From Escherichia phage vB_EcoM_FJ1, in sequence record MZ170040.1: DNA of 64,000 bases, one strand, 5' to 3'. A model generated the notes under the pieces. The model did not search any database, was not told the DNA's origin, and saw only the letters and a program-made list of their open reading frames with translations. Below are positions 1 through 57,767 of the stretch, in pieces. A program made the position numbers and the translations under genes. Each line of letters begins with the position of its first letter. Within the stretch, counting starts at the first letter, position 1.

Positions 1-228
1 TAACGTGAATTCAATGAAGTCAAGCATATCGGTAAGAGTCAACATTCCAAAACTCTGGGTAGCAATACCAGGTTTAGGCCATTTCTTGATATAATACTGT
101 AACCCACGAGAATAAGTCAGACGATATACTCGTTTAAGCAATTCATTATCTTTATTCTTTTCAAGAATTGCTTGCTTCTGCTTAGTTGAACCAATAGATG
201 CTATTTCGTTCAGAATTTTAAGAATCAT
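1..228 (-). CDS. 30: DNA ligase gp30, N-terminal fragment (gene continues beyond window start)
   Basis: Reverse strand from 228 reads MILKILNEIASIGSTKQKQAILEKNKDNELLKRVYRLTYSRGLQYY..., the N-terminus of T4-type ATP-dependent DNA ligase; frame open to position 1. Confidence 0.85.
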   Translation of the reverse strand, partial: MILKILNEIASIGSTKQKQAILEKNKDNELLKRVYRLTYSRGLQYYIKKWPKPGIATQSFGMLTLTDMLDFIEFTL

Positions 229-494
229 TGTTCATCCTTCAGAGTTTGGTTTACAGCTCTATTATAAATCAATTCATCATTAAGCTCAGTCAAAGACTTA
301 TGATATGTGGTTCTAACTTTATTTCCTTGCATCCAGTGCTTGATATAAATGAAACCTTGCTCTACGCATTTTTTAAAAATTCGTTCGTCTTTTTGAGCTC
401 GGAATTCTGGATTGCATCTAAAAAATTGATTTACGTGACCGTAATCACGTGTAGTATTACCTTCATTTTCATAAATAGTGTGAACAACAAACAT
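225..494 (-). CDS. hypothetical protein (30.1-like position)
   Basis: 89-aa ORF, stop overlaps ligase ATG, start overlaps upstream ORF; typical T4 coupled early-gene packing. Confidence 0.55.
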   Translation of the reverse strand: MFVVHTIYENEGNTTRDYGHVNQFFRCNPEFRAQKDERIFKKCVEQGFIYIKHWMQGNKVRTTYHKSLTELNDELIYNRAVNQTLKDEQ

Positions 495-1333
495 TAGAAT
501 GCTCCTTGGAAAATATTATCACCACAAGTAGGTCTATTATACAAATACTCTATACCGCCGGGTTTAATATAGTTCCATGTCTGAAACGGATGTGTCTGAT
601 ATGGATGATATAGATGATTATAAGGATTAAATCCAGGAGTTCTCCAGGTAGTGTTCCAACGAAAAGAATCGTTTTTAATCATCTTTTCAATTACATCTTT
701 TATAGCTTTTTCACTATCAAAACTTTCTTTATTTTCCTTTGGTGAAAAAAACTTATTCTCTACATCGTTCCATGTATAAACTCGCTGAGCAGTTTTTGGA
801 ATACTGTCACGTTCCCCTCGAGCCATCCAATAAACAGGAACACTTAATATTTCACTCGCGTGATCGCAGTGGTGAGCGAGATCGTCAATATAACAAATTA
901 CGTTATATTTCTCTTTTGCCTTTTTGAACAACTCTTCTTTTGAAGAATCATGACCACACATCAGTACTTCTGAGAAGGCACCAGGAAAAAGAGCATTCAA
1001 ATTAAATTGACGATTCAGCAGAGCGTCAATAGAATCACCCAGCGCTGTAACAGCTACAAAATTATAATCTTCTTTTAATTTGTTAATTACACACAGAGCA
1101 TCTTTATATGGAGACAAGTAACGAATAAAATCTGAACGATTGTATTTTTCAATTAACTTGACACCAAGTTCTTCATCACAATTAAAAAGTTTACCAGGAG
1201 AAATAAATTTTTCATCTTGGATCATTTTTAAAATATGTTCCAACGGAAGATTATATTTCTGAGCAAAATAAGGAAGGCCTGATTGCCAGCTTAAACACAC
1301 TCCATCAATATCAGTTAAAATAGTAGGCTTCAT
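494..1333 (-). CDS. HAD-superfamily phosphatase-like protein
   Basis: 279 aa; N-terminal ILTDIDGV (HAD motif I DxDG) and YIDD near C-terminal half (motif IV-like). Confidence 0.6.
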   Translation of the reverse strand: MKPTILTDIDGVCLSWQSGLPYFAQKYNLPLEHILKMIQDEKFISPGKLFNCDEELGVKLIEKYNRSDFIRYLSPYKDALCVINKLKEDYNFVAVTALGDSIDALLNRQFNLNALFPGAFSEVLMCGHDSSKEELFKKAKEKYNVICYIDDLAHHCDHASEILSVPVYWMARGERDSIPKTAQRVYTWNDVENKFFSPKENKESFDSEKAIKDVIEKMIKNDSFRWNTTWRTPGFNPYNHLYHPYQTHPFQTWNYIKPGGIEYLYNRPTCGDNIFQGAF

Positions 1334-2468: not shown

Positions 2469-2507
2469 AGTATTTTCCTCAATAGGGGCCGAAGCCCCTC
2501 ATTTATT

Positions 2508-3349: not shown

Positions 3350-3378
3350 AAAATAAAAAAGGACTCCCGAAGGAGTCC
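3350..3378 (-). terminator. rho-independent terminator
   Basis: GGACTCC-CGAA-GGAGTCC hairpin followed on the minus strand by T-run; same hairpin recurs at 57744..57761. Confidence 0.6.
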
Positions 3379-3383
3379 TCAAC

Positions 3384-5292: not shown

Positions 5293-5873
5293 TATTCACC
5301 GCAGAATTCGTTGATATTTTCCCAGTTTAACTTATTCAAGTTTTTCTTAGGAACATTAAACACTTCAATACCTGCATTTCGCAGAATATCATCCCAACCA
5401 GGTTTATTTTTGTCGTATGTTTCACAATAAACCAGCTTTTTAATACCAGATTGAGCTATCGCTTTTGCGCAATCTGGGCAAGGAGAAAGTGTTACATACA
5501 TAGTAGCACCTTCAATAGAAGAACCATTTCGTGCAGCAAACAAAATTGCATTTAGTTCAGCATGAATTTCATTTTTAGATGACCATTCCGAGTGAGCACT
5601 ACGATGTTCTTTCGCCAAAACAAAACGATCAGTTGAACCAAATGATACGCATTCAGGCTTATGACCTTGAATGATAGTATGTTTAGGCTTATTCAACAAC
5701 CAACCTTGCTCAGCAGCATAATCACAACAGTTCACACCCCCTGCGGGTGAACCATTATACCCAGTAGAAATAATACGTCCATTCTTTTCAATTACTGCTC
5801 CTACCTTCCAGGAGCAACATTTTGATTCCTGCGATACTAAATATGCAATTTGAAGTACTGTACTCGCTTTCAT
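5292..5873 (-). CDS. cd: dCMP deaminase
   Basis: 193 aa; cytidine/dCMP deaminase zinc motifs HAELNAI (H-x-E) and PCPDC; T4 Cd length. Confidence 0.85.
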   Translation of the reverse strand: MKASTVLQIAYLVSQESKCCSWKVGAVIEKNGRIISTGYNGSPAGGVNCCDYAAEQGWLLNKPKHTIIQGHKPECVSFGSTDRFVLAKEHRSAHSEWSSKNEIHAELNAILFAARNGSSIEGATMYVTLSPCPDCAKAIAQSGIKKLVYCETYDKNKPGWDDILRNAGIEVFNVPKKNLNKLNWENINEFCGE

Positions 5874-6208
5874 TTCATAATCACCAGATAAGCAGATTTA
5901 GCAGTTTCAACACGATAAATTTCGTGACGAAGTTTAGTTATACTTTTAATAACAGAACTAATTATATTCTGCCCATCTTTAAAGCGGTTTTTCTTATCAA
6001 TAAAAACTACACCAGTCATCTTTTTGTGAAGCTCAACTGGATACTTCGTCACAATAATAGCATCATACACAGAAGGATGAATACTATTCACCAGAGTATC
6101 ATTCATTAAAGTTATTCTAATGAACTTTGCTGTTTCAGAGTCAAGCGCTCTATGATCACCAGTATCATTTTCAAGACAATTATCAATTATATCAGTTAAA
6201 TTCATCAT
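5870..6208 (-). CDS. hypothetical protein
   Basis: 112-aa ORF, ATGA-type overlap with cd. Confidence 0.5.
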   Translation of the reverse strand: MMNLTDIIDNCLENDTGDHRALDSETAKFIRITLMNDTLVNSIHPSVYDAIIVTKYPVELHKKMTGVVFIDKKNRFKDGQNIISSVIKSITKLRHEIYRVETAKSAYLVIMK

Positions 6209-6441
6209 AGTACGCCATACACCCTTTGTGCTTCAACTAATCCATCAAAATCCAGTTTAAGATGCGATATTTGATCGCCATCACCTGGATTCACAATTAC
6301 TAATACTGAACGAGGAGTTTCGGTAATAACACGAACCGATGTTTCAGGAAATCGTTCAGAAACCTTATTTACCAATTCCTGCGCAAATAGTTTAACTTTT
6401 TCTTGGAATTCTTTAACAGTAATTGGTTTTTCACTTAGCAT
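6205..6441 (-). CDS. hypothetical protein
   Basis: 78-aa ORF. Confidence 0.5.
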   Translation of the reverse strand: MLSEKPITVKEFQEKVKLFAQELVNKVSERFPETSVRVITETPRSVLVIVNPGDGDQISHLKLDFDGLVEAQRVYGVL

Positions 6442-7693: not shown

Positions 7694-8918
<1,225 letters not shown>

Positions 8919-23472: not shown

Positions 23473-26400
23473 ATGGCCGAGATTAAAAGAAAGTTCAGAG
23501 CAGAAGATGGTCTGGACGCAGGTGGCGATAAAATAATCAACGTAGCTTTAGCTGATCGTACCGTAGGAACTGACGGTGTTAACGTTGATTACTTAATTCA
23601 AGAAAACACAGTTCAACAATACGATCCAACTCGTGGATATTTAAAAGATTTTGTAATCATTTATGATAACCGCTTTTGGGCTGCTATAAATGATATTCCA
23701 AAACCGGCAGGAGCTTTTAATAGCGGACGCTGGAGAGCATTACGTACCGATGCTAACTGGATTACAGTCTCATCTGGTTCATATCAATTAAAATCGGGTG
23801 AAGCAATTTCGGTTAACACCGCAGCTGGAAATGACATCACGTTTACTTTACCATCTTCTCCAATTGATGGTGATACTATCGTTCTCCAAGATATTGGAGG
23901 AAAACCTGGAGTTAACCAAGTTTTAATTGTAGCTCCAGTGCAAAGTATTGTAAACTTTAGAGGTGAACAGGTACGTTCAGTACTAATGACTCATCCAAAG
24001 TCACAGCTAGTTTTAATTTTTAGTAATCGTCTGTGGCAAATGTATGTTGCTGATTATAGTAGAGAAGCTATAGTTGTAACACCAGCGAATACTTATCAAG
24101 CGCAATCCAACGATTTTATCGTGCGTAGATTTACTTCTGCTGCACCAATTAATGTTAAACTTCCAAGATTTGCTAATCATGGCGATATTATTAATTTCGT
24201 CGATTTAGATAAACTGAATCCACTTTATCATACAATTGTTACTACATACGATGAAACGACTTCAGTACAAGAAGTTGGAACTCATTCCATTGAAGGCCGT
24301 ACATCGATTGACGGTTTCTTGATGTTTGATGATAATGAGAAATTGTGGAGATTGTTTGACGGGGATAGTAAAGCACGTTTACGTATCATAACAACTAATT
24401 CAAACATTCGTCCAAATGAAGAAGTTATGGTATTTGGTGCGAATAATGGAACAACTCAGACAATTGAGCTTAAGCTTCCAACTAATATTTCTGTTGGTGA
24501 TACTGTTAAAATTTCCATGAATTACATGAGAAAAGGACAAACAGTTAAAATCAAAGCTGCTGATGAAGATAAAATTGCTTCTTCAGTTCAATTGCTGCAA
24601 TTCCCAAAACGTTCAGAGTATCCACCTGAAGCTGAATGGGTGACTGTTCAAGAATTAATTTTTAACGGTGAAACTAATTATGTTCCAGTTTTGGAGCTTG
24701 CTTACATAGAAGATTCTGATGGAAAATACTGGGTTGTACAGCAAAATGTTCCAACTGTAGAAAGAGTTGATTCTTTAAATGATTCTACTAGAGCGAGATT
24801 AGGCGTAATTGCTTTAGCTACACAAGCGCAAGCTAATGCCGATTTAGAAAATTCTCCACAAAAAGAATTAGCAATTACTCCAGAAACGTTAGCTAATCGT
24901 ACTGCTACTGAAACTCGTAGAGGTATTGCAAGAATAGCAACTACTGCTCAAGTGAATCAGAACACCACATTCTCTTTTGCAGATGACCTTATCATTACTC
25001 CTAAAAAGCTGAATGAAAGAACTGCTACAGAAACTCGTAGAGGTGTTGCTGAAATTGCTACGCAGCAAGAAACTAATGCAGGTACTGATGATACTACAAT
25101 CATTACTCCTAAAAAGCTTCAAGCTCGTCAAGGTTCTGAGTCATTATCTGGTATTGTAACCTTTGTATCTACCGCAGGAGCTACTCCAGCTTCTAGTCGT
25201 GAATTAAATGGTACAAACGTTTATAATAAAAACACTAATAATTTAGTTGTTTCGCCTAAAGCTCTGGATCAGTATAAAGCTACTCCAACGCAACAAGGTG
25301 CAGTAATTTTAGCAGTTGAAAGTGAAGTAATTGCTGGGCAGAGTCAAGAAGGATGGGCAAATGCGGTTGTAACGCCAGAAACGTTACATAAAAAGACATC
25401 AACTGATGCAAGAATTGGTTTAATTGAAATTGCTACGCAAAGTGAAGTTAATACAGGAACTGATTATACTCGTGCAGTCACTCCTAAAACTTTAAATGAC
25501 CGTAAAGCAACTGAAAGTTTAAGTGGTATAGCTGAAATTGCTACACAAGTTGAATTCGACGCAGGCGTCGACGATACTCGTATCTCTACACCATTAAAAA
25601 TTAAAACTAGATTTAATAGTACTGATCGTACTTCTGTTGTTGCTCTATCTGGATTAGTTGAATCAGGAACTCTCTGGGACCATTATACCCTTAATATTCT
25701 TGAAGCAAATGAGACACAGCGTGGTACACTTCGTGTAGCTACACAGGTTGAAGCTGCTGCAGGAACATTAGATAATGTTTTAATAACTCCTAAAAAGCTT
25801 TTAGGTACTAAATCTACCGAATCGCAGGAAGGTGTTATTAAAGTTGCAACTCAGTCTGAAACTGTGACTGGAACGTCAGCAAATACTGCTGTATCTCCAA
25901 AAAATTTAAAATGGATTGTGCAGAGTGAACCTACTTGGGCAGCTACTACTGCGATAAGAGGCTTTGTTAAAACTTCATCTGGTTCAATTACATTCGTTGG
26001 TAATGATACAGCTGGTTCTACGCAGGACTTAGAGCTATACGAGAAAAATAGCTATGCAGTATCACCATACGAATTAAACCGTGTACTCGCTAACTATTTG
26101 CCATTAAAAGCAAAAGCTGCTGACGCAAATTTATTAGATGGCCTAGATTCATCTCAGTTCATTCGTAGGGACATTGCACAGACGGTTAATGGTTCACTAA
26201 CCTTAACCCAGCAAACGAATCTGAGTGCCCCTCTTGTATCATCTAGTACTGCTACGTTTGGTGGATCAGTTTCGGCAAATAGTACATTAACTATTTCTAA
26301 TACTGGAACGGCAACTCGTCTGATTTTTGAGAAAGGACCTCAAACTGGAACTAACCCAGCACAGACGATGACTATCAGAGTTTGGGGAAATCAGTTTGGC

Positions 26401-27342
26401 GGCGGTTCAGATACAACACGTTCTACTGTATTTGAAGTTGGTGATGAAACATCTAATCACTTTTATTCTCAACGTAATAAAGCTGGGAATATAACGTTTA
26501 GTATCAATGGTACTATGATGCCAATAAATGTTAATGCTTCGGGTTCTTTGAATGCGAACGGCGTTGCAACATTTGGTAGTTCAGTTACAGCCAATGGCGA
26601 ATTCATCAGCAAGTCTGCAAATGCTTTCAGAGCAATAAATGGCGACTATGGATTCTTTATTCGCAATGATGCTGCTAACACCTATTTTATGCTTACTGCA
26701 TCGGGTGATCAGACTGGCGGATTTAATGGATTACGTCCTTTAGCTATTAACAATCAGTCCGGTCAAGTAACGATTGGTGAAAGCTTAATCATTGCCAAAG
26801 GTGCTACTATAAATTCAGGTGGTTTAACTGTTAACTCGAGAATTCGTTCTCAGGGCACTAAAACTTCTGACTTATATACCCGTGCGCCAACATCTGATAC
26901 TGTAGGATTCTGGTCAATCGATATTAATGATTCAGCTACTTATAACCAATTCCCGGGTTATTTTAAAATGGTTGAAAAAACTAATGAAGTGACTGGACTT
27001 CCATACTTAGAACGTGGCGAAGAAGTTAAATCTCCTGGTACATTGACTCAGTTTGGTAACACACTTGATTCGCTTTACCAAGATTGGATTACTTATCCAA
27101 CGACGCCAGAAGCGCGTACCACTCGCTGGACACGTACCTGGCAGAAAACCAAAAACTCTTGGTCAAGTTTTGTTCAGGTATTTGATGGAGGTAACCCTCC
27201 TCAACCATCTGATATCGGTGCTTTACCATCTGATAATGCTACAATGGGCAATCTTACTATTCGTGATTTCTTGCGAATTGGTAATGTTCGCATTATTCCT
27301 GACCCAGTGAATAAAACGGTTAAATTTGAATGGGTTGAATAA
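23473..27342 (+). CDS. 34: gp34 long tail fiber proximal subunit
   Basis: 1289 aa, MAEIKRKFRAEDGLDAGGDKIINVALADRTVG...; contains about eight copies of a ~20-aa ITPKKL...TETRRGIAEIATQ repeat. Confidence 0.95.
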   Translation: MAEIKRKFRAEDGLDAGGDKIINVALADRTVGTDGVNVDYLIQENTVQQYDPTRGYLKDFVIIYDNRFWAAINDIPKPAGAFNSGRWRALRTDANWITVSSGSYQLKSGEAISVNTAAGNDITFTLPSSPIDGDTIVLQDIGGKPGVNQVLIVAPVQSIVNFRGEQVRSVLMTHPKSQLVLIFSNRLWQMYVADYSREAIVVTPANTYQAQSNDFIVRRFTSAAPINVKLPRFANHGDIINFVDLDKLNPLYHTIVTTYDETTSVQEVGTHSIEGRTSIDGFLMFDDNEKLWRLFDGDSKARLRIITTNSNIRPNEEVMVFGANNGTTQTIELKLPTNISVGDTVKISMNYMRKGQTVKIKAADEDKIASSVQLLQFPKRSEYPPEAEWVTVQELIFNGETNYVPVLELAYIEDSDGKYWVVQQNVPTVERVDSLNDSTRARLGVIALATQAQANADLENSPQKELAITPETLANRTATETRRGIARIATTAQVNQNTTFSFADDLIITPKKLNERTATETRRGVAEIATQQETNAGTDDTTIITPKKLQARQGSESLSGIVTFVSTAGATPASSRELNGTNVYNKNTNNLVVSPKALDQYKATPTQQGAVILAVESEVIAGQSQEGWANAVVTPETLHKKTSTDARIGLIEIATQSEVNTGTDYTRAVTPKTLNDRKATESLSGIAEIATQVEFDAGVDDTRISTPLKIKTRFNSTDRTSVVALSGLVESGTLWDHYTLNILEANETQRGTLRVATQVEAAAGTLDNVLITPKKLLGTKSTESQEGVIKVATQSETVTGTSANTAVSPKNLKWIVQSEPTWAATTAIRGFVKTSSGSITFVGNDTAGSTQDLELYEKNSYAVSPYELNRVLANYLPLKAKAADANLLDGLDSSQFIRRDIAQTVNGSLTLTQQTNLSAPLVSSSTATFGGSVSANSTLTISNTGTATRLIFEKGPQTGTNPAQTMTIRVWGNQFGGGSDTTRSTVFEVGDETSNHFYSQRNKAGNITFSINGTMMPINVNASGSLNANGVATFGSSVTANGEFISKSANAFRAINGDYGFFIRNDAANTYFMLTASGDQTGGFNGLRPLAINNQSGQVTIGESLIIAKGATINSGGLTVNSRIRSQGTKTSDLYTRAPTSDTVGFWSIDINDSATYNQFPGYFKMVEKTNEVTGLPYLERGEEVKSPGTLTQFGNTLDSLYQDWITYPTTPEARTTRWTRTWQKTKNSWSSFVQVFDGGNPPQPSDIGALPSDNATMGNLTIRDFLRIGNVRIIPDPVNKTVKFEWVE

Positions 27343-27350
27343 GAGGTATT

Positions 27351-28466
27351 ATGGAAAAATTTATGGCAGAGTTTGGACAAGGATATGTCCAAACGCCATT
27401 TTTATCGGAAAGCAATTCAGTAAGATACAAAATAAGTATAGCGGGTTCTTGCCCGCTTTCTACTGCAGGACCATACGTTAAATTTCAGGATAATCCTGTA
27501 GGAAGTCAAACATTTAGCGCAGGACTTCATTTAAGAGTTTTTGACCCTTCCACCGGAGCATTAGTTGATAGTAAGTCATATGCTTTTTCGACTTCAAATG
27601 ATACTACATCAGCTGCTTTTGTTAGCTTCATGAATTCTTTGACAAATAATAGAATTGTTGCTATATTAACTAACGGAAAGGTTAATTTTCCTCCTGAAGT
27701 AGTATCTTGGCTAAGAACTGCAGGAACGTCTGCTTTTCCATCTGATTCTATATTGTCAAGATTCGACGTATCATATGCTGCTTTTTATACTTCTTCTAAA
27801 AGAGCTATCGCATTAGAGCATGTTAAATTAAGTAATAGAAAAAGCACAGATGATTATCAAACTATTTTAGATGTTGTATTTGACAGTTTAGAAGACGTCG
27901 GAGCTACCGGGTTTCCAAGAAGAACGTATGAAAGCGTTGAGCAATTTATGTCAGCGGTTGGTGGAACTAATAACGAAATTGCGCGTCTACCAACTTCGGC
28001 TGCAATAAGTAAACTCTCTGATTATAATTTAATTCCTGGTGATGTTCTTTATCTTAAAACACAGCTATACGCCGATGCTGATTTACTTGCTCTTGGAACT
28101 ACAAATATATCTATCCGTTTTTATAATGCATCAAATGGATATATTTCCTCGACACAAGCTGAATTTACTGGGCAAGCTGGGTCATGGGAATTAAAGGAAG
28201 ATTATGTAGTTGTTCCAGAAAACGCAGTAGGATTTACGATATACGCACAGAGAACTGCACAAGCAGGTCAAGGTGGCATGAGAAATTTAAGCTTTTCTGA
28301 AGTGTCAAGAAATGGTGGTATTTCGAAACCTGCTGAATTTGGTGTCAATGGTATTCGTGTTAATTATATCTGTGAATCTGCTTCACCTCCGGATATAATG
28401 GTACTTCCTACGCAAGCATCGTCTAAAGCTGGTAAAGTGTTTGGACAAGAATTTAGAGAAGTTTAA
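27351..28466 (+). CDS. 35: gp35 long tail fiber hinge connector
   Basis: 371 aa directly downstream of 34. Confidence 0.85.
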   Translation: MEKFMAEFGQGYVQTPFLSESNSVRYKISIAGSCPLSTAGPYVKFQDNPVGSQTFSAGLHLRVFDPSTGALVDSKSYAFSTSNDTTSAAFVSFMNSLTNNRIVAILTNGKVNFPPEVVSWLRTAGTSAFPSDSILSRFDVSYAAFYTSSKRAIALEHVKLSNRKSTDDYQTILDVVFDSLEDVGATGFPRRTYESVEQFMSAVGGTNNEIARLPTSAAISKLSDYNLIPGDVLYLKTQLYADADLLALGTTNISIRFYNASNGYISSTQAEFTGQAGSWELKEDYVVVPENAVGFTIYAQRTAQAGQGGMRNLSFSEVSRNGGISKPAEFGVNGIRVNYICESASPPDIMVLPTQASSKAGKVFGQEFREV

Positions 28467-28471
28467 ATTGA

Positions 28472-28498
28472 GGGAGCCTTCGGGTTCCCTTTTTCTTT
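28472..28498 (+). terminator. rho-independent terminator after gene 35
   Basis: GGGAGCC-TTCG-GGTTCCC hairpin followed by TTTTTCTTT. Confidence 0.6.
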
Positions 28499-28505
28499 AT
28501 AAATA
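28498..28505 (+). promoter_or_regulatory. T4 late promoter TATAAATA upstream of gene 36
   Basis: exact TATAAATA 24 nt upstream of gene 36 ATG. Confidence 0.7.
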
Positions 28506-28528
28506 CTATTAAAATAAAGGGGCATACA

Positions 28529-29191
28529 ATGGCTGATTTAAAAGTAGGTTCAACAACCGGAGGCTCTGTCATTTGGCATCAAGGAAATTTTCCATTGAAT
28601 CCAGCCGGTGACGATGTACTCTATAAATCATTTAAAATATATTCAGAATATAATAAACCACAAGCTGCTGATAACGATTTCGTTTCTAAAGCTAATGGTG
28701 GTACTTACGCCGCGACTGTTCGATTTAATGGAGGAGTACATGTTCCTACTATAGGTAGTAGTCAACCGTGCGGTGTTTATCCAGGTAACGGTGATGCAGC
28801 TACTTTTGCTATGGCAAATATTGACATCGTTTCGTGGAATGGTATTGGTTTTAAATCATCACAAGGTTCAGCAGACCGAACTGTTGTTATTAACGCTCGT
28901 ACCGGTGATATCAGCACTAAGGGCGGTTTTTATGCAACTGGTCCTGTCCGTTCTAACGCTGCTGCTCCTATAGCAGCGAATGACCTTACTAGAAAGGACT
29001 ATGTTGATGGAGCAATAAATACTGTTACGGCAAATGCGAACTCTAGAGTGTTACGATCTGGTGACACCATGACAGGTAATTTAACCGCACCAAACTTTTT
29101 CTCGCAGAATCCTGCATCTCAACCTTCACATGTTCCACGATTTGACCAAATCGTAATTAAGGATTCTGTTCAAGATTTCGGCTATTATTAA
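28529..29191 (+). CDS. 36: gp36 long tail fiber distal connector
   Basis: 220 aa, [34 protein letters not shown]... Confidence 0.85.
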
Positions 29192-29199
29192 GAGGACTT

Positions 29200-32100
29200 A
29201 TGGCTACTTTAAAACAAATACAATTTAAAAGAAGCAAAACCGCAGGTGCACGTCCTGCTGCTTCAGTATTAGCCGAAGGTGAATTGGCTATAAACTTAAA
29301 AGATAGAACAATTTTTACTAAAGACGATTCAGGAACTATCATTGATCTAGGTATTGCTAAAGGCGGTCAAATTGATGGAAATGTGACTATCAATGGTCTT
29401 TTAAGATTAAATGGGGATTATACACAAACTGGTGGAATGACCGTAAATGGACCTATTGGTTCTACTGAAGGCGTATCCGCCTTAGTTTTTAGATCTATGC
29501 GAGGGTCATTTTACGCAAGAGCAACAAATGATACTTCCAATGCCCATCTTTGGTTTGAAAATACAGATGGATCGGAGAGAGGTGTTTTATATTCAAAACC
29601 ACAGTCTGAAAATGAAGGCGTAATTACAATGCGTGTTCGCCAAGGAACCGCAGCAGGGGCTCAAAATTCAGAATTTCATTTCATTTCGACTGATGGTGGT
29701 ATTTTCCAGGCACGTAAATTAACTGCTTTAACTTCTATTAGTACACCAACTATTAGTGTTAATTTAATTAATCATGATTCTAAAGCCTTTGGGCAATACG
29801 ATTCACAATCATTGGTTCAGTATGTTTATCCTGGAACCGGTGAAACTAACGGAGTAAACTATCTTCGTAAAGTTCGTGCTAAATCTGGCGGCACTATATG
29901 GCATGAAATCTGTACAGCTCAGACTGGACAAGCTGATGAAATGTCATGGTGGACTGGTAAAACACCATTATTTAAACTATACGGTATTCGTAACGACGGT
30001 AGAATGATTATCCGCAATAGCTTGGCCATTGGTACTGTGACTGAAGGATACCCGTCAAGCGATTATGGAAATACCGGGGTAATGGGAGATAGGTATTTAG
30101 CTCTTGGCGATAATGCTTCTGGACTTAAATGGGTTCGTACTGGCGTTATTGACTTAATGGCTAACGGTATTTCTGCGGCGACTATTATTAATAATGGTAT
30201 TAATAGTACTAAAAAATTGATGGTCGGTTATAGCCGCGATTCTGGTACTACATGGGATTTTCCAAATAACAACCAAGCAATGTTTACTGCGCGTACCGAT
30301 ATTGATGGTAATAATAACGGTGATGGGCAAACTCATATCGGTTATAACAGTAATTCTAAAATGCATCACTATTTCCGTGGTACAGGTCGTATGGCTGTTG
30401 GTATGTCCCAAGGTCTCCTTGTTGAACCAGGAATTTTAGATATTAACACTGGTTCTAATAGAGTTGCTATTAGAGCAGATGGTACATTTGACTCAACCCG
30501 ACGTATTTCAATGCGTACTGGATTATTTTTATCAGGTGATGATAATACCAATGCTTTGTCATTTAAAGCTCCTACCGGTGTTGACGGAACCAAAACCATT
30601 AACTGGGATGCAGGCACTCGTAACGGACAGAATAAAAATACTGTTTCAATTAAAGCATGGGGTAATGCCTTTAACTCAGTTCCCGGTATTAGAGAAACTG
30701 TATTTGAAGTATATGATTCACAAGGTTATTATTTTTATTCACAACGCCAGCGCCCAGAAGGTTCTGAAACTGTTGGGCCCGTTGTAACCCAGTTCAATGG
30801 ACCAGTTAATGCTAACGGCTCTATTAGCACTGCAGGAAATCTTAAAGTTGATGGTTTAAGCACTTTAAACGGTAATGTTACAATGAAGAACGGCTTGTTT
30901 TTACAAGGTGGTTCTTCTATTACCGGCCAAGTTAAAATCGGCGGAACAACAAATGCATTGAGAATTTGGAACGCCGAATACGGTGCTATTTTCCGCCGTT
31001 CGGAAAGTAATCTTTATATTATTCCAACCAATCAAAATGAAGGCGAAAGTGGAGACATTCACAGCTCTTTGAGACCTGTGAGAATAGGATTAAACGATGG
31101 CATGGTTGGGTTAGGAAGAGATTCTTTTATAGTAGATCAAAATAATGCTTTAACTACTATAAACAGTAACTCTCGCATTAATGCCAACTTTAGAATGCAA
31201 TTAGGACAAAATGCTTATATAGACATTGAGGCTTCTGATGGAGTTCGCCCAACAGGTTGTGGTTCCTTTGCATCTCAGAATGACGTAAACGTCAGAGCTC
31301 CAATTTATATGAATATAGAGCGTACTGCTACTTCTGAATACATTCCTATTGTTAAACAACGGTATGTAAAGGGCGATAGTACTTATTCTATTGGTACCTT
31401 GATTTCTCAGGGAGACTTTCGCGTTCATTATCACCAGGGAACTAGCACCAATGGCGTAGATTTGAGTTGGGAATTCCGTCGCACAGGCGATTTCCGCGCG
31501 GCAGGTAAAATTATTGCCGGTGCTGCTACTCTTGGCACTGATGGTAATATCACGGGCGGTTCAGGAAACTTTGCTAACTTGAATACAACTTTAAACCGTA
31601 AAGTGAATTCTGGTTTTATTACTTATGGAGCAACTGCAGGTTGGTACAAGTTTGCAACAGTAACAATGCCTCAAGCTACATCAACCGTTTCAATTACAGT
31701 CACTGGCGGAAATGGATTTAATTCTGGATCATTTAATCAGTGCGCAATTTCTGAAATTGTTCTTCGTACAGGAAACAATACTCCTAAAGGATTAAATGCT
31801 GTTCTATATAGAAGAGGACTAAATTCATTTAGAGATATTGCTTGGGTTAATACATCTGGTGATACATATGACATTTATGTTAATATGGGAACATATGCTA
31901 ATCAGTTGATATTTAACTATAGTTCTGTTGATAACGCTACAGTTCAAATTATTGGCGCATTCAGTTCAGCCCAAAATCCTGTTGATGCATTGCCAGAAAC
32001 ATATATTAAAGGTCAGGTAGCAGATGTATTGACTAACTTAGTTGATTCTGGAAAAACGAAGCGTTTTGTTGCTGAATCTGAAATAGCTGTTAATAATCAA

Positions 32101-33156
32101 ACTGGATTACGTATTACGAGTAATGGTGATAAATCTGGTTCAAATTCAGTATTATTTAGAAATGACGGTGGAAGCTTCTATATTTTACTGACCGACAAAA
32201 ACTCTTCAGACGGCGATAATAAAGCAACTGAAGGTGATTGGAATGGAAAACGACCGTTTTCAATTGATATGACTGCTGGTACTGTTCGTCTTGGCGAAAA
32301 TACTTCTTTTGATAAAGATATTGTTATTAATGGAAACATTAATTCACGAGTTAAAGTTGCTGGACAGTGGAACGTCAGCTTTTCTTCTATTTCAGATGTG
32401 ACTCGCGACAATTCTGCATTCTTAGCGAATACTGGTGGCATTTCCAAGACAAGTCAAGCTTATTACCCGCTATTTTCTGGATACAGTTTTTTAACTGACG
32501 CAGGTTATCGCCAATCGTTTGAATTTGGATGGTTAGGTGTTTCTGGTACTTGGCGTCAAGGCATTATTCGCATGCGTGGTAACAACCCATCGGGGCAACA
32601 GGCTCGTTGGACTTTTGATATGGACGGAACATTTTATGCTCCTATACTATCATGTGGGTCTGCGAGAGCATTCGGTGTCAATACAACAAATGGATGGGGT
32701 GGTAACTCAATTGCGATAGGTGATAGTGATACTGGTTTTAGACAAGTAGGCGATGGGCTTTTAGAAACATGGGCAAACAACGTTAAGGTCGTTCGTTATA
32801 CTTCAAGTGAAGTTTATTCCGAGAAAAACGTCAACGCTCCTAACGTTTATATTCGTTCTGATATTCGTTTGAAATCTAATTTCAAGCCTATTGAAAACGC
32901 GCTCGAAAAGGTTGAACAACTTGATGGTTTAATCTATGACAAAGCTGAATATATAGGCGGTGAACCTGTCCAAACAGAAGCGGGTATTATAGCTCAAACG
33001 TTGCAAGACGTTTTACCAGAAGCTGTCCATGAAACAGAAGACAGTAAGGGTAATAAAATACTCACTGTTTCTTCTCAAGCCCAGATTGCTCTTCTGGTTG
33101 AAGCTGTGAAAACACTTTCTGCTCGTGTAAAAGAACTTGAATCTAAACTTATGTAA
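29200..33156 (+). CDS. 37: gp37 long tail fiber distal subunit with C-terminal intramolecular chaperone-like domain
   Basis: 1318 aa starting [43 protein letters not shown]; C-terminal ~100 aa ([29 protein letters not shown]...) resembles S74-type autoproteolytic chaperone domain. Confidence 0.85.
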
Positions 33157-33186
33157 AAGAGGGCTTCGGCCCTCTAAGGATTTTTA

Positions 33187-33993
33187 ATGGCAATTGTAGG
33201 TGTTCCTGGCTGGATTGGCGAATCTGCCGTGAATGAAACTGGACAACGTTGGATGGATGCTGCGATGAGAGCAGTTCGTGTTTCAGTTCCCGGTTGGATG
33301 AGTTCAATGGCAGGAAAGTCAGTTGAAAAAGCTTATTCAATTGGCTCAAATCATTCATATAATAAAGATACTTTAATTAATTGGCTTAAATCAATTGGAA
33401 CAGCTCCTGCTGTTGTAACAATAACAGGAGATATTGTTTCTAGTTCTTCAACTATTCCGTGCTTAGATTTTCCTAGTTCATTAACTAATGAATATGTGAC
33501 ATTGATTATTAACTCTGGCGTTACTGTTTATGGCCGAGGAGGTAATGGATCTGGATCTAGTGGAGGTTCTGGAGATGCTTTAGTTCGAGCAACTGCTGGT
33601 GGTACAGCGATTAATAATGGTATTGGTACACGCTTACGTATTACGAATAATGGCGCAATTGCTGGCGGCGGTGGTGGCGGCGGTGGTTGGTCCGTAGATT
33701 ATAACTTCACATTAGGTAATGTTGCTGGTGGTGGAGGCGGACGTCCTTTCGGTACTGGTGGTCGAGGTGGTCGAGGTAATGGTGGTAATGCATCGTTAAC
33801 CGCCGCAGGTGGTAAAGTAACTGTTGATGGTAATAACATGAGTGGTGCGGGTGGTAATGTTGGCTCAGCTGGTGGCGCTGCTGTTCGTACATCAAACTTT
33901 CAAACTAGTGGCGCTGGCGCTGCGGGTAAAGCTGTTACCGGAAATGCCCCAACATGGACTAAGGTTGGTACAATATACGGTTCAAGAGTATAA
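33187..33993 (+). CDS. 38: gp38 tail fiber adhesin, T2-type with glycine-rich motifs
   Basis: 268 aa, MAIVGVPGWIGESAVNETGQRWM... then poly-Gly blocks (AGGGGGGGGW, GGGGGRPFGTGGRGGRGNGG). Confidence 0.85.
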   Translation: MAIVGVPGWIGESAVNETGQRWMDAAMRAVRVSVPGWMSSMAGKSVEKAYSIGSNHSYNKDTLINWLKSIGTAPAVVTITGDIVSSSSTIPCLDFPSSLTNEYVTLIINSGVTVYGRGGNGSGSSGGSGDALVRATAGGTAINNGIGTRLRITNNGAIAGGGGGGGGWSVDYNFTLGNVAGGGGGRPFGTGGRGGRGNGGNASLTAAGGKVTVDGNNMSGAGGNVGSAGGAAVRTSNFQTSGAGAAGKAVTGNAPTWTKVGTIYGSRV

Positions 33994-34024
33994 TTTTGAA
34001 TAAATATCCTTAAAAGGAGGGTCT

Positions 34025-34681
34025 ATGGCAGCACCTAGAATATCATTTTCGCCCTCTGATATTCTATTTGGTGTTCTAGATCGCTTGTTCAAAGATAACG
34101 CTACCGGGAAAGTTCTTGCTTCCCGGGTAGCTGTCGTAATTCTTTTATTTATGATGGCGATTGTTTGGTATAGGGGAGATAGTTTCTTTGAGTACTATAA
34201 GCAATCAAAGTATGAAACATACAGTGAAATTATTGAAAAGGAAAGAAATGCACGCTTTGAATCTGTCGCCCTGGAACAACTCCAGATAGTTCATATATCA
34301 TCTGAGGCAGACTTTAGTGCGGTGTATTCTTTCCGCCCTAAAAACTTAAACTATTTTGTTGATATTATAGCATATGAAGGAAAATTACCTTCAACAATAA
34401 GTGAAAAATCACTTGGAGGATATCCTGTTGATAAAACTATGGATGAATATGCAGTTCATTTAAATGGACGTCATTATTATTCCAACTCAAAATTTGCTTT
34501 TTTACCAACTAAAAAGCCTACTCCCGAAATAAACTACATGTACAGTTGTCCATATTTTAATTTGGATAATATCTATGCTGGAACGATAACCATGTACTGG
34601 TATAGAAATGATCATATAAGTAATGACCGCCTTGAATCAATATGTGCTCAGGCGGCCAGAATATTAGGAAGGGCTAAATAA
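34025..34681 (+). CDS. t: holin T
   Basis: 218 aa, single N-terminal TM (VAVVILLFMMAIVWY) plus large periplasmic domain. Confidence 0.9.
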   Translation: MAAPRISFSPSDILFGVLDRLFKDNATGKVLASRVAVVILLFMMAIVWYRGDSFFEYYKQSKYETYSEIIEKERNARFESVALEQLQIVHISSEADFSAVYSFRPKNLNYFVDIIAYEGKLPSTISEKSLGGYPVDKTMDEYAVHLNGRHYYSNSKFAFLPTKKPTPEINYMYSCPYFNLDNIYAGTITMYWYRNDHISNDRLESICAQAARILGRAK

Positions 34682-34954
34682 TTATTTGTTCGTATACATC
34701 TCTAGATATCGATATACACCCTCAAAACCCTCGTTGAATTCGTCGATGAGGGTTTTCTTATCTTCTTGAGTTAATTCAGAAACAATTTTACGGAATGAAT
34801 TCTGATTTAATTTTCTACCTTCATGCGTTACTCCAATCTCATTCAGAAATGCAATAAAATTAGCACGATTCTCAACAATATCTTCTCTGGAAAATTTAAT
34901 CAAAATAGACGCAACAGTAATAATTTCACGAACTGTATCAATATTTTTATTCAT
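34682..34954 (-). CDS. asiA: AsiA anti-sigma70 factor
   Basis: 90 aa, MNKNIDTVREIITVASILIKFSREDIVENRANFIAFLNEIGVTHEGRKLN... Confidence 0.9.
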   Translation of the reverse strand: MNKNIDTVREIITVASILIKFSREDIVENRANFIAFLNEIGVTHEGRKLNQNSFRKIVSELTQEDKKTLIDEFNEGFEGVYRYLEMYTNK

Positions 34955-37501: not shown

Positions 37502-37530
37502 AAATAAAAAAAGGGGAGCCGAAGCTCCCC
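37502..37530 (-). terminator. rho-independent terminator downstream of gene 52 region
   Basis: GGGGAGC-CGAA-GCTCCCC hairpin followed by T8 on minus strand. Confidence 0.65.
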
Positions 37531-39314: not shown

Positions 39315-39395
39315 TCACTGGCGTCCGAAGACGCCTTTAGTTTTAAGATTGTTACGATAGAACTGCATCACGTGTTCGTTATGGAAATTACTCAT
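39315..39395 (-). CDS. stp: Stp peptide (activator of host PrrC anticodon nuclease)
   Basis: hand-translated 26 aa [26 protein letters not shown]; start overlaps ndd stop (TAATG). Confidence 0.8.
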
Positions 39396-41982: not shown

Positions 41983-42002
41983 AAAAGGGCCGAAGCCCTT
42001 TA
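41983..42002 (-). terminator. GC hairpin with flanking T-runs (possible bidirectional terminator)
   Basis: AAGGGC-CGAA-GCCCTT flanked by T-rich tracts on both strands. Confidence 0.45.
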
Positions 42003-47448: not shown

Positions 47449-47514
47449 TTATCCTCGTTTGGTTTCGGGAATATTATACTCCGGTAATCATAAAGCTAAA
47501 GGCCCGAAGGCCTT

Positions 47515-47775
47515 TTATTTAAAACGAATAGTTGAATCCTTAAAGAACAGCCCAGAACATACTGTTCCTTCTACTTTCTGCCCAGTAGGTCCAATAGCAC
47601 GAAATCCAGTATGCTGGAAATCATTTTCAGAGCAACCGAACCAGTTATATCCAGTGATTTCAATATTAGTAAAACCACTTGAAGACAAAACTTTGGTTGC
47701 ATTATCAGCATCAGTACATCCTATTAAAGACACTGCTAATACTAATGCTGCGATAGAACGATTAATATATTTCAT
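47515..47775 (-). CDS. putative lipoprotein
   Basis: 86 aa; signal peptide with lipobox LIGC; SD AAGGG upstream. Confidence 0.55.
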   Translation of the reverse strand: MKYINRSIAALVLAVSLIGCTDADNATKVLSSSGFTNIEITGYNWFGCSENDFQHTGFRAIGPTGQKVEGTVCSGLFFKDSTIRFK

Positions 47776-57735: not shown

Positions 57736-57761
57736 ATGAAAAAGGACTCCCGAAGGAGTCC
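57736..57761 (-). terminator. rho-independent terminator after soc
   Basis: GGACTCC-TTCG-GGAGTCC hairpin plus T-run on minus strand, immediately after soc stop. Confidence 0.65.
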
Positions 57762-57767
57762 TTGAAT

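Follow-up and report, generated by a model that had tools for sequence, protein, structure and literature searches.

Which of the T-even tip architectures is encoded at the g37–g38 locus of Escherichia phage vB_EcoM_FJ1 (FJ1), and how far can the properties of its products be read across from better-studied relatives? The locus lies at positions 29,200 to 33,993 of the window, that is, of the whole stretch of 64,000 nucleotides analysed from sequence record MZ170040.1, and its two products, gp37 (QYW00298.1) and gp38 (QYW00299.1), were identified by exact protein look-up and are both deposited as "hypothetical protein" in the GenBank record of the phage. An initial annotation, made from the letters alone, had given them lengths of 1318 and 268 residues, which the open reading frames (ORFs; Table 1) confirm, and had proposed a T2-type receptor-recognition module. 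The locus very probably encodes a standard T2/S16-type receptor-recognition module of a Tequatrovirus, made up of a self-cleaving gp37 and a glycine-rich tip adhesin, gp38. What the analysis itself establishes is how the genes are laid out, the families they belong to, the catalytic motif, the predicted fold, the mosaic ancestry and the conservation of the hairpin. Modules of this kind are already textbook knowledge, how they work is unchanged by the present findings, and the authors who described FJ1 had already presented gp38 as an adhesin unlike T4 gp38 (10.1101/2022.07.04.498734; PMC10035155).

A peptidase S74 domain at the C-terminus of gp37

The last 100 or so residues of gp37 had been likened to an autoproteolytic chaperone, and the likeness is borne out by a full-length match to PF13884 (Peptidase_S74, "chaperone of endosialidase"; profile 1-58/58 at residues 1220-1277, E 9.8e-15, 55 bits against a cutoff of 22). 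The peptide quoted at the time starts exactly at residue 1220, so that the intramolecular chaperone (IMC) comprises the last 99 of the 1318 residues, that is, the extreme C-terminus of the distal subunit of the long tail fibre. Pfam and a profile search both reach peptidase S74 chaperone domains: a profile of 13 gp37 C-termini matches the solved IMC domains of S16 (6F45_A, 2e-23) and of the tail fibre 8JOV (1e-10), as well as the MyRF ICA domain (7DC3, 5e-9) and the GA-1 neck appendage (3GUD, 2.4e-5), a likeness that holds at the level of sequence and profile only. A single-sequence search of the PDB with the IMC returned only 6F45_A, a weak MyRF match and chance haemagglutinin matches; the profile was needed to reach the GA-1 and 8JOV structures.

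The initial annotation had made its proposal depend on a Ser/Lys dyad in the proper context, and this is present, with S1220 and K1225 set in the motif S-D-x-x-x-K. The catalytic dyad of endosialidase and MYRF is made up of this Ser and a Lys five residues downstream of it, and an Arg stabilises the oxyanion (PMC3742443). The S, D and K are invariant in the alignment of the 13 gp37 C-termini, and the motif recurs in all 27 gp37 C-termini (27/27) recovered upstream of gp38 adhesin genes. The search for them covered 29 loci, metagenomic and viral, with gp38-type genes. In 27 of these an IMC-bearing g37 lies directly upstream of the gp38 gene; one of the remaining two has gp38 without a preceding g37, and in the other the script found no ORF. 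At one locus, on a 165-kb contig (L006, 1400-1500), gp38 is not preceded by an IMC-bearing g37, and a different hairpin with a T-run (GCCCC-UUAAUU-GGGGC UUUUCUU) stands upstream instead, an arrangement that fits the displaced gp38 reported for Krischvirus (10.64898/2026.04.02.716166).

The tip and the IMC of FJ1 gp37 align to the S16 gp37 fragment that was crystallised with gp38 (6F45_A), including the cleavage site DLNVS^SDRRIKK (^ marks the cut). The S16 IMC is autocleaved at this site, for related Tequatroviruses the predicted cut is at DVYIR^SD (PMC7917993), and the NVYIR tip of FJ1 gp37 corresponds to the DVYIR / DLNVS strand discussed in the same study. The S16 IMC, of 113 residues, has Ser before its cut (DLNVS^S), whereas in FJ1, with an IMC of 99 residues, the residue before the predicted cut is Arg (NVYIR^S). 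The FJ1 domain is identical to that of T2 at 90/99 positions (91%) and to that of Lutter at 97/99, and in T2 and T6 gp37 is known to undergo proteolytic processing before gp38 caps it (PMC3157838, citing Drexler 1986). The deposited 3GUD chain, which is the released domain of GA-1, begins exactly at SDERHK. Because of the S74 match, the invariant dyad, the identity to T2 and the processing known from T2/T6 and S16, gp37 is predicted to be cleaved at R1219^S1220, which would yield a mature gp37 of 131 kDa ending in ...NAPNVYIR and a released fragment of 10.8 kDa. The other S74 IMC domains (endosialidase K1F, GA-1 3GUD, MYRF ICA) likewise sit at the C-terminus of a trimeric fibre and hold Ser and Lys five apart together with the Arg, but the similarity is distant outside the motif and the first ~60 residues, and in FJ1, unlike in other S74 proteins, the predicted cleavage would create a docking site for a separate adhesin and not simply mature a spike.

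A glycine-rich tip adhesin of the T2/S16 type

The assignment of gp38 to the T2/S16 adhesins, and not to the chaperone type of T4, holds in sequence as well as in predicted fold. The protein matches PF05268 (GP38 adhesin; E 8.4e-67; residues 47-268, profile 1-218/218) and PF21721 (Gp38_N; E 8.5e-18; residues 1-42), and in the PDB the S16 adhesin 6F45_D (E 3.6e-43) and the PP01 receptor-binding domain 9V85 (E 4e-41). An AlphaFold2 model built with 52 homologues reached a predicted local distance difference test score (pLDDT) of 91.5, with dips at the hypervariable loops, and a predicted template modelling (TM) score of 0.86; its only significant PDB matches are again 6F45_D (TM 0.80/0.86) and 9V85 (TM 0.76/0.91), and the modelled fold is a beta-helix with a polyglycine-II sandwich. 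The reading of gp38 as a T4-type chaperone was rejected, BLASTP against T4 gp38 giving E 7.7 over 7 residues and T4 gp38 itself being without PF05268, PF21721 or any Pfam match. Several relatives' adhesins are still labelled 'distal long tail fiber assembly catalyst' or 'tail assembly protein', a carry-over from T4 gp38.

The poly-glycine blocks that had been seen between variable segments are runs of eight (G8, 160-167) and five (G5, 181-185) glycines in a protein that is 22% glycine overall and 35% over residues 116-252, and they belong to a series of five glycine-rich motifs (GRMs) alternating with four hypervariable segments (HVSs). The GRMs are 55-100% conserved, and across the 52 homologues conservation falls to near zero in HVS2-4. 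The octapeptide GDALVRAT inserted in HVS1 is found among these aligned homologues only in the FJ1 protein, P0006, P0020, P0022 and P0023 (the FJ1/Lutter allele group); SH-1, Sf22, T2, T6, PP01 and S16 do not have it. At the other end of the protein the three tryptophans of the attachment domain (W9, W22, W37) align with Trp residues of S16, W9 and W22 being at least 90% conserved in the homologue alignment, and a role for such Trp 'prongs' has been described (PMC7917993). The N-terminal domain is 93-100% identical to those of T2, Sf22, UFV13 and Lutter, which fits the shared NVYIR tip of gp37.

Comparison with known systems

The closest classical counterpart is the gp37/gp38 pair of T2 (with the K3, Ox2, M1 and T6 adhesins studied in the Henning and Krisch laboratories). 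T2 shares with FJ1 the gene order 36-37-38-t, a g37-g38 spacer of 30 nt with the identical hairpin, PF13884 in gp37, PF05268 and PF21721 in gp38, an N-terminal gp38 domain that is 93% identical, and the same five GRMs and four HVSs. It differs in gp37, whose shaft is a different mosaic, bringing overall identity down to 56%, and in the loops, where HVS2 is 8%, HVS3 23-40% and HVS4 0-27% identical (values that depend on the alignment) and where HVS1 of FJ1 has its 8-aa insertion; the T2 receptors (FadL/OmpF) are therefore not transferable to FJ1. With the tip complex of Salmonella phage S16 (PDB 6F45) FJ1 has the gp38 fold, the gp37 tip and IMC, the cleavage motif and the three N-terminal Trp in common, whereas identity is ~43%, the loops differ and S16 binds Salmonella OmpC. 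PP01 gp38 (9V85) has the same fold, by the model, at 48% identity.

In T4, which pairs a needle-tip adhesin with a chaperone, the two genes occupy the same locus and the N-terminal ~850 aa of gp37 are homologous (65% identity), but the gp37 C-terminus has Collar and fibre-repeat domains without an S74 domain, and gp38 is an unrelated chaperone of 183 aa.

The gp38 allele and its receptor

That the HVS loops act in receptor recognition has been shown in relatives (PMC3157838; PMC12032242; PMC12892980; 10.64898/2026.04.02.716166), and from this work it follows that the gp38 loops would also set the host range of FJ1, as the initial annotation had expected. Several observations nevertheless weigh against carrying the T2/S16 model over to FJ1 in full; they concern the receptor, the intercistronic hairpin and the cleavage of gp37, and are taken here and in the following sections.

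FJ1 gp38 is 99.6% identical to that of Lutter. When the whole protein and the specificity domain alone were compared with 50,697 phage records (tblastn), the specificity domain was found almost unchanged only in Lutter, G8 and the Hafnia phage IsaacDaniel, and HVS2-4 alone also in the Shigella phages SH-1 and SH-2. The next group (Sf22, KRT47, ime09 and CrRp10) is ~65% identical over the specificity domain and ~70% overall and is the nearest allele with a mapped receptor, Sf22 and KRT47 using OmpC (PMC12892980); the classical M1 and T6 adhesins are 44-46% identical to FJ1 gp38 overall. HVS2, HVS3 and HVS4 are only 0-40% identical to those of Sf22, PP01 and S16 (OmpC), T2 (FadL), T6 (Tsx) and PaulHMueller (OmpA), with 23-36% to Sf22 and 18-40% to PP01, and no adhesin with a mapped receptor shares HVS2-4 in the phage records, in a further search of 5.8 billion proteins or in the segment comparisons. 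No receptor is therefore transferable by similarity, and none is assigned. The supplements of one gp38-receptor paper make no mention of Lutter, IsaacDaniel, ime09, Sf22, CrRp10 or KRT47 (G8 was not among the names searched). The gp38 of Shigella phage SH-1 (L037, 4201-4989) is chimeric, its N-terminal half and HVS1 resembling the OmpC binder Sf22 and its HVS2-4 resembling FJ1; as a recombinant made by nature, it could be of use in tracing specificity to particular loops.

Host-range mutants of Ox2 gp38 can reportedly switch from protein to carbohydrate, in work ascribed to Drexler in 1991. In FJ1 itself, periodate cut adsorption from 57.8% to 9.8% while proteinase K was without effect, a screen of the Keio knockouts (K-12) found no receptor, and the authors concluded that the receptor is a carbohydrate (10.1101/2022.07.04.498734; PMC10035155). 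Such data are unlike those for a simple outer-membrane-protein receptor; the assay is crude, it mixes long-fibre with short-fibre binding, short tail fibres also bind lipopolysaccharide (LPS), and the results are compatible with a protease-resistant porin as well. A receptor outside Tsx, OmpA, OmpC, OmpF, FadL and OmpW, most plausibly an LPS carbohydrate (core or O-antigen-related sugar), is hence a tentative proposal for the FJ1/Lutter/G8/IsaacDaniel allele, and one that we consider doubtful. The loss of most adsorption to periodate and its survival of proteinase K would suit such a receptor, yet beta-barrel porins of intact cells often resist proteinase K, and periodate, besides being able to disturb how porins are presented, breaks down the LPS core on which the short tail fibres depend. 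That no single-gene knockout of K-12 blocked infection points the same way, but the host range of FJ1 is very narrow, and the phage may be unable to plate on K-12, in which case the screen would be uninformative. The unlikeness of HVS2-4 to OmpC, OmpA, Tsx and FadL binders, the allele-specific insertion in HVS1 and the occurrence of the same allele in phages isolated on Hafnia, Shigella boydii and E. coli producing Shiga toxin are further points in favour of a carbohydrate, whereas all gp38 adhesins mapped in large screens bind porins (10.64898/2026.04.02.716166; PMC12032242). If the receptor were indeed a carbohydrate, the architecture of the module would still be standard and its receptor class unusual for gp38 adhesins.

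The g37/g38 intercistronic hairpin

A GC hairpin had been placed at 33159..33174 between the two genes; the hairpin is there, although it extends one pair further on each side (33158-33175). It falls in the class of T-even intercistronic C(UUCG)G hairpins, which reportedly goes back to Tuerk and colleagues in 1988. The window holds 28 copies of CTTCGG, where shuffled versions have 13.3 +/- 3.8, and 14 UUCG hairpins with stems of 5 bp or more, where shuffles have 3.6; nine strong C(UUCG)G hairpins lie on the coding strand (Table 1), some followed by a T-run and others (39320, 2484) by the near-identical ribosome-binding site A(G/T)TGAGGAAAAT.

The case for the g37/g38 hairpin mattering is its comparative conservation, since its stability (minimum free energy -13.4 kcal/mol) is not exceptional when set against shuffles in a context of 61 nt (z = -1.08). 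It is identical in T2, Sf22, UFV13, AV115, Lutter and G8, and is kept with compensatory stem changes in T6, T4, AV122 and the loci L004, L017, L018, L024, L026 and L027. The variant stems at the same position, AGGGCC-UUCG-GGCCCU, AAGGGCC-UUUG-GGCCCUU, AGGGGC-GUAAA-GCCCCU and AAGGGGC-UUU/AUU-GCCCCUU (the last in T6), have free energies of -8.8 to -14 kcal/mol and were compared by folding each variant separately, a MAFFT alignment of the spacers having put the hairpins out of register; (A/G)AGGA keeps its position relative to the hairpin in the relatives. At least 11 more divergent gp38 loci, however, leave no room for a hairpin, their stop and start codons being 8-9 nt apart or overlapping, so that the hairpin is not required for the module to work.

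The initial annotation had suggested that the hairpin tunes the ratio of the two products, which in mechanistic terms would mean that transcription partly terminates there, leaving less g38 than g37 mRNA, and that the 3:1 stoichiometry is set in this way. We consider this unlikely. A G+C-rich stem of 7 bp with TTTTT downstream, listed as terminator-like, and a structure kept through compensatory changes would suit a terminator, as would the fact that S16 needs a single gp38 for each gp37 trimer (gp38 is monomeric according to PMC12032242). In the terminator scan the hairpin only just passes at permissive settings: the TTTTT run begins 5 nt after the stem, from which it is parted by AAGGA, the ribosome-binding site of g38, while canonical terminators need an adjacent U-tract. 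The T-run varies or is missing in relatives that retain the hairpin and is not conserved in T6 (UUUGGAGAAAAUU) or T4 (CUAAAU), and several of the nine C(UUCG)G hairpins directly precede a ribosome-binding site without any T-run, which argues for a general role in mRNA or translation. With its T-run set apart from the stem, the hairpin would be at best a weak intrinsic terminator. A search of Rfam over 28300-34200 found nothing relevant, the sole match being a chance small nucleolar RNA (E 0.7).

A related G+C-rich UUCG/UUUG hairpin also stands at the g37/g38 junction of T4-type modules, where the flanking coding sequences are unrelated. In T2-type modules, FJ1 included, the hairpin lies upstream of the Shine-Dalgarno sequence, whereas in T4 and AV122 the Shine-Dalgarno sequence precedes it. 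In T4 gene 38 the hairpin between Shine-Dalgarno sequence and AUG brings the two close in a split ribosome-binding site and is thus a translation-initiation element (PMC3014915), which speaks against a terminator in the homologous position of FJ1. Most likely, we infer, the FJ1 hairpin acts in mRNA protection, insulation or stability and/or in coupling the initiation of g38 to the termination of g37 (translational coupling). The junction hairpin may be a conserved site for module exchange as well as an RNA element.

Cleavage and assembly of the fibre tip

Cleavage, assembly of gp37 and gp38 in a 3:1 ratio and loop-mediated receptor binding are expected for FJ1 by analogy with T2, S16, PP01 and other relatives, as is the presence of gp38 on the virion. 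It is highly improbable, however, that the S74-like segment stays in an uncleaved mature fibre with gp38 mainly an assembly factor like that of T4, since the database labels of several gp38 homologues as 'distal long tail fiber assembly catalyst', which would favour this, are annotation carried over from T4, while the Ser/Lys dyad and the Arg are intact in a domain shared almost unchanged with T2, whose gp37 is processed (PMC3157838), and gp38 is unrelated to T4 gp38 and folds, by the model, like the adhesins located on the fibre tip in S16 and PP01 (PMC12892980).

With self-cleavage as the preferred reading, late transcription of g36, g37 and g38 would start from the TATAAATA promoter at 28498, and gp37 would trimerise with the aid of its own C-terminal chaperone. 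Once the trimer had folded, the Ser1220/Lys1225 dyad would cut between R1219 and S1220 and release the chaperone, and the exposed tip would be capped by one gp38 through its conserved Trp-bearing attachment domain. The glycine-rich motifs of gp38 would form the polyglycine-II sandwich, a scaffold displaying four hypervariable loops, and these would touch the primary receptor and thereby set the first, reversible step of host recognition.

Mosaic ancestry of gp37

When identity was followed along gp37 in bins of 50 aa, the closest relative changed from UFV13 to AV122, a phage with a T4-type tip, then to the Mosigvirus AV115 and finally, over the last 100-150 aa, to Lutter/T2 (Table 1). By these identities gp37 is a patchwork of at least four parental types, including segments common across genera and to both tip architectures, and no entry in the search of phage records matches 80% of the module at high identity. 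That T-even fibre genes are shuffled by recombination is already familiar (PMC3157838). Residues 498-628 of gp37 (30691-31083) match Gp34_trimer (PF21446, E 3e-10), and as gp37 of T4 and T2 does so too, this would be a trimerisation module common to the proximal and distal half-fibres.

Gene order and transcription unit

The genes g36, g37 and g38 probably form a single late transcription unit that starts at the T4-type late promoter TATAAATA, an exact motif match; phage Lutter has a promoter annotated at the equivalent site. Lying 5' of the FJ1 promoter (28470-28491) is a UUCG hairpin followed by a T-run, a feature annotated in Lutter as well. The flanking 10 kb are 96-97% identical to many Tequatrovirus genomes. 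Just 3' of the holin gene t, inside the oppositely oriented asiA, a terminator-like hairpin of 14 bp (34724-34756, plus strand) may be the end of the late tail-fibre/holin transcript. In gp35 (27351-28466) residues 58-127 match the Pfam family ILEI (interleukin-like EMT inducer / FAM3 family; E 6.3e-9, above the gathering threshold), an unexpected domain for a fibre hinge protein.

Table 1. Positions of genes, protein segments and RNA elements in the FJ1 window, with closest relatives of gp37 segments and junction hairpins of related phages.
Feature	Position	Strand	Basis or remark
g34, proximal subunit	23473-27342	+	ORF list, Pfam
g35, proximal connector	27351-28466	+	ORF list, Pfam
Late promoter TATAAATA, T4-type	28498..28505	+	exact motif match upstream of g36
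g36, distal connector of long tail fibre, 220 aa	28529..29191	+	Pfam Phage_T4_gp36, E 3.9e-38
g37, long tail fibre distal subunit precursor, 1318 aa, 142 kDa	29200..33156	+	ORF, PHROG 1699
gp37, first segment	residues ~1-600		closest relative UFV13
gp37, second segment	residues ~600-800		closest relative AV122, T4-type tip
gp37, third segment	residues ~800-1250		closest relative AV115, Mosigvirus
gp37 C-terminal segment	last 100-150 aa		closest relative Lutter/T2
gp37 distal tip, residues 1166-1219, ends ...NAPNVYIR	32695..32856	+	aligns with 6F45_A; predicted gp38 docking end after cleavage
IMC / Peptidase S74 domain, residues 1220-1318, 99 aa, 10.8 kDa	32857..33153	+	Pfam PF13884
S1220-D-I-R1223-L-K1225 (nucleophile Ser, general-base Lys, conserved Arg)	32857..32874	+	alignment, dyad as in PMC3742443
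RNA hairpin AGAGGGC-UUCG-GCCCUCU, 7 bp, C(UUCG)G tetraloop	33158..33175	+	1 nt after g37 stop, abuts g38 Shine-Dalgarno
g38 Shine-Dalgarno AAGGA	33176..33180	+	6 nt 5' of ATG, read from sequence
g38, T2/S16-type tail-fibre tip adhesin, 268 aa, 26 kDa	33187..33993	+	Pfam, PHROG 2056
gp38 N-terminal attachment domain, residues 1-46, with W9, W22, W37	33187..33324	+	Gp38_N
gp38 specificity domain	33532..33942	+	segment limits from alignments
GRM1; HVS1; GRM2	residues 116-121; 122-155; 156-167		
HVS2; GRM3; HVS3	residues 168-180; 181-189; 190-219		
GRM4; HVS4; GRM5	residues 220-230; 231-241; 242-252		
GDALVRAT, 8-residue HVS1 insertion, residues 128-135	33568..33591	+	alignment
t, holin	34025-34681	+	ORF list, Pfam
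C(UUCG)G hairpins	28470-28491, 33158-33175	+	
C(UUCG)G hairpins	57742-57763, 47498-47515, 41984-42001, 39320-39335, 37513-37530, 3359-3380, 2484-2499	-	
Junction hairpin in T4 (L032)	5623-5650		
Junction hairpin in AV122 (L035)	6204-6232		
Junction hairpin in T6 (L039)	8690-8725		

Implications

The "hypothetical protein" annotation of both genes can be corrected, to a gp37 predicted to cleave itself and to a gp38 adhesin of the T2 type, and the gp38 allele flagged here is one apart from the adhesins with mapped receptors. FJ1 is under development against enterotoxigenic E. coli of pigs and has a very narrow host range, and the module described here decides which bacteria the phage can first attach to. 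It also indicates a site for host-range engineering, as gp38 swaps from HVS2 onwards work in relatives.

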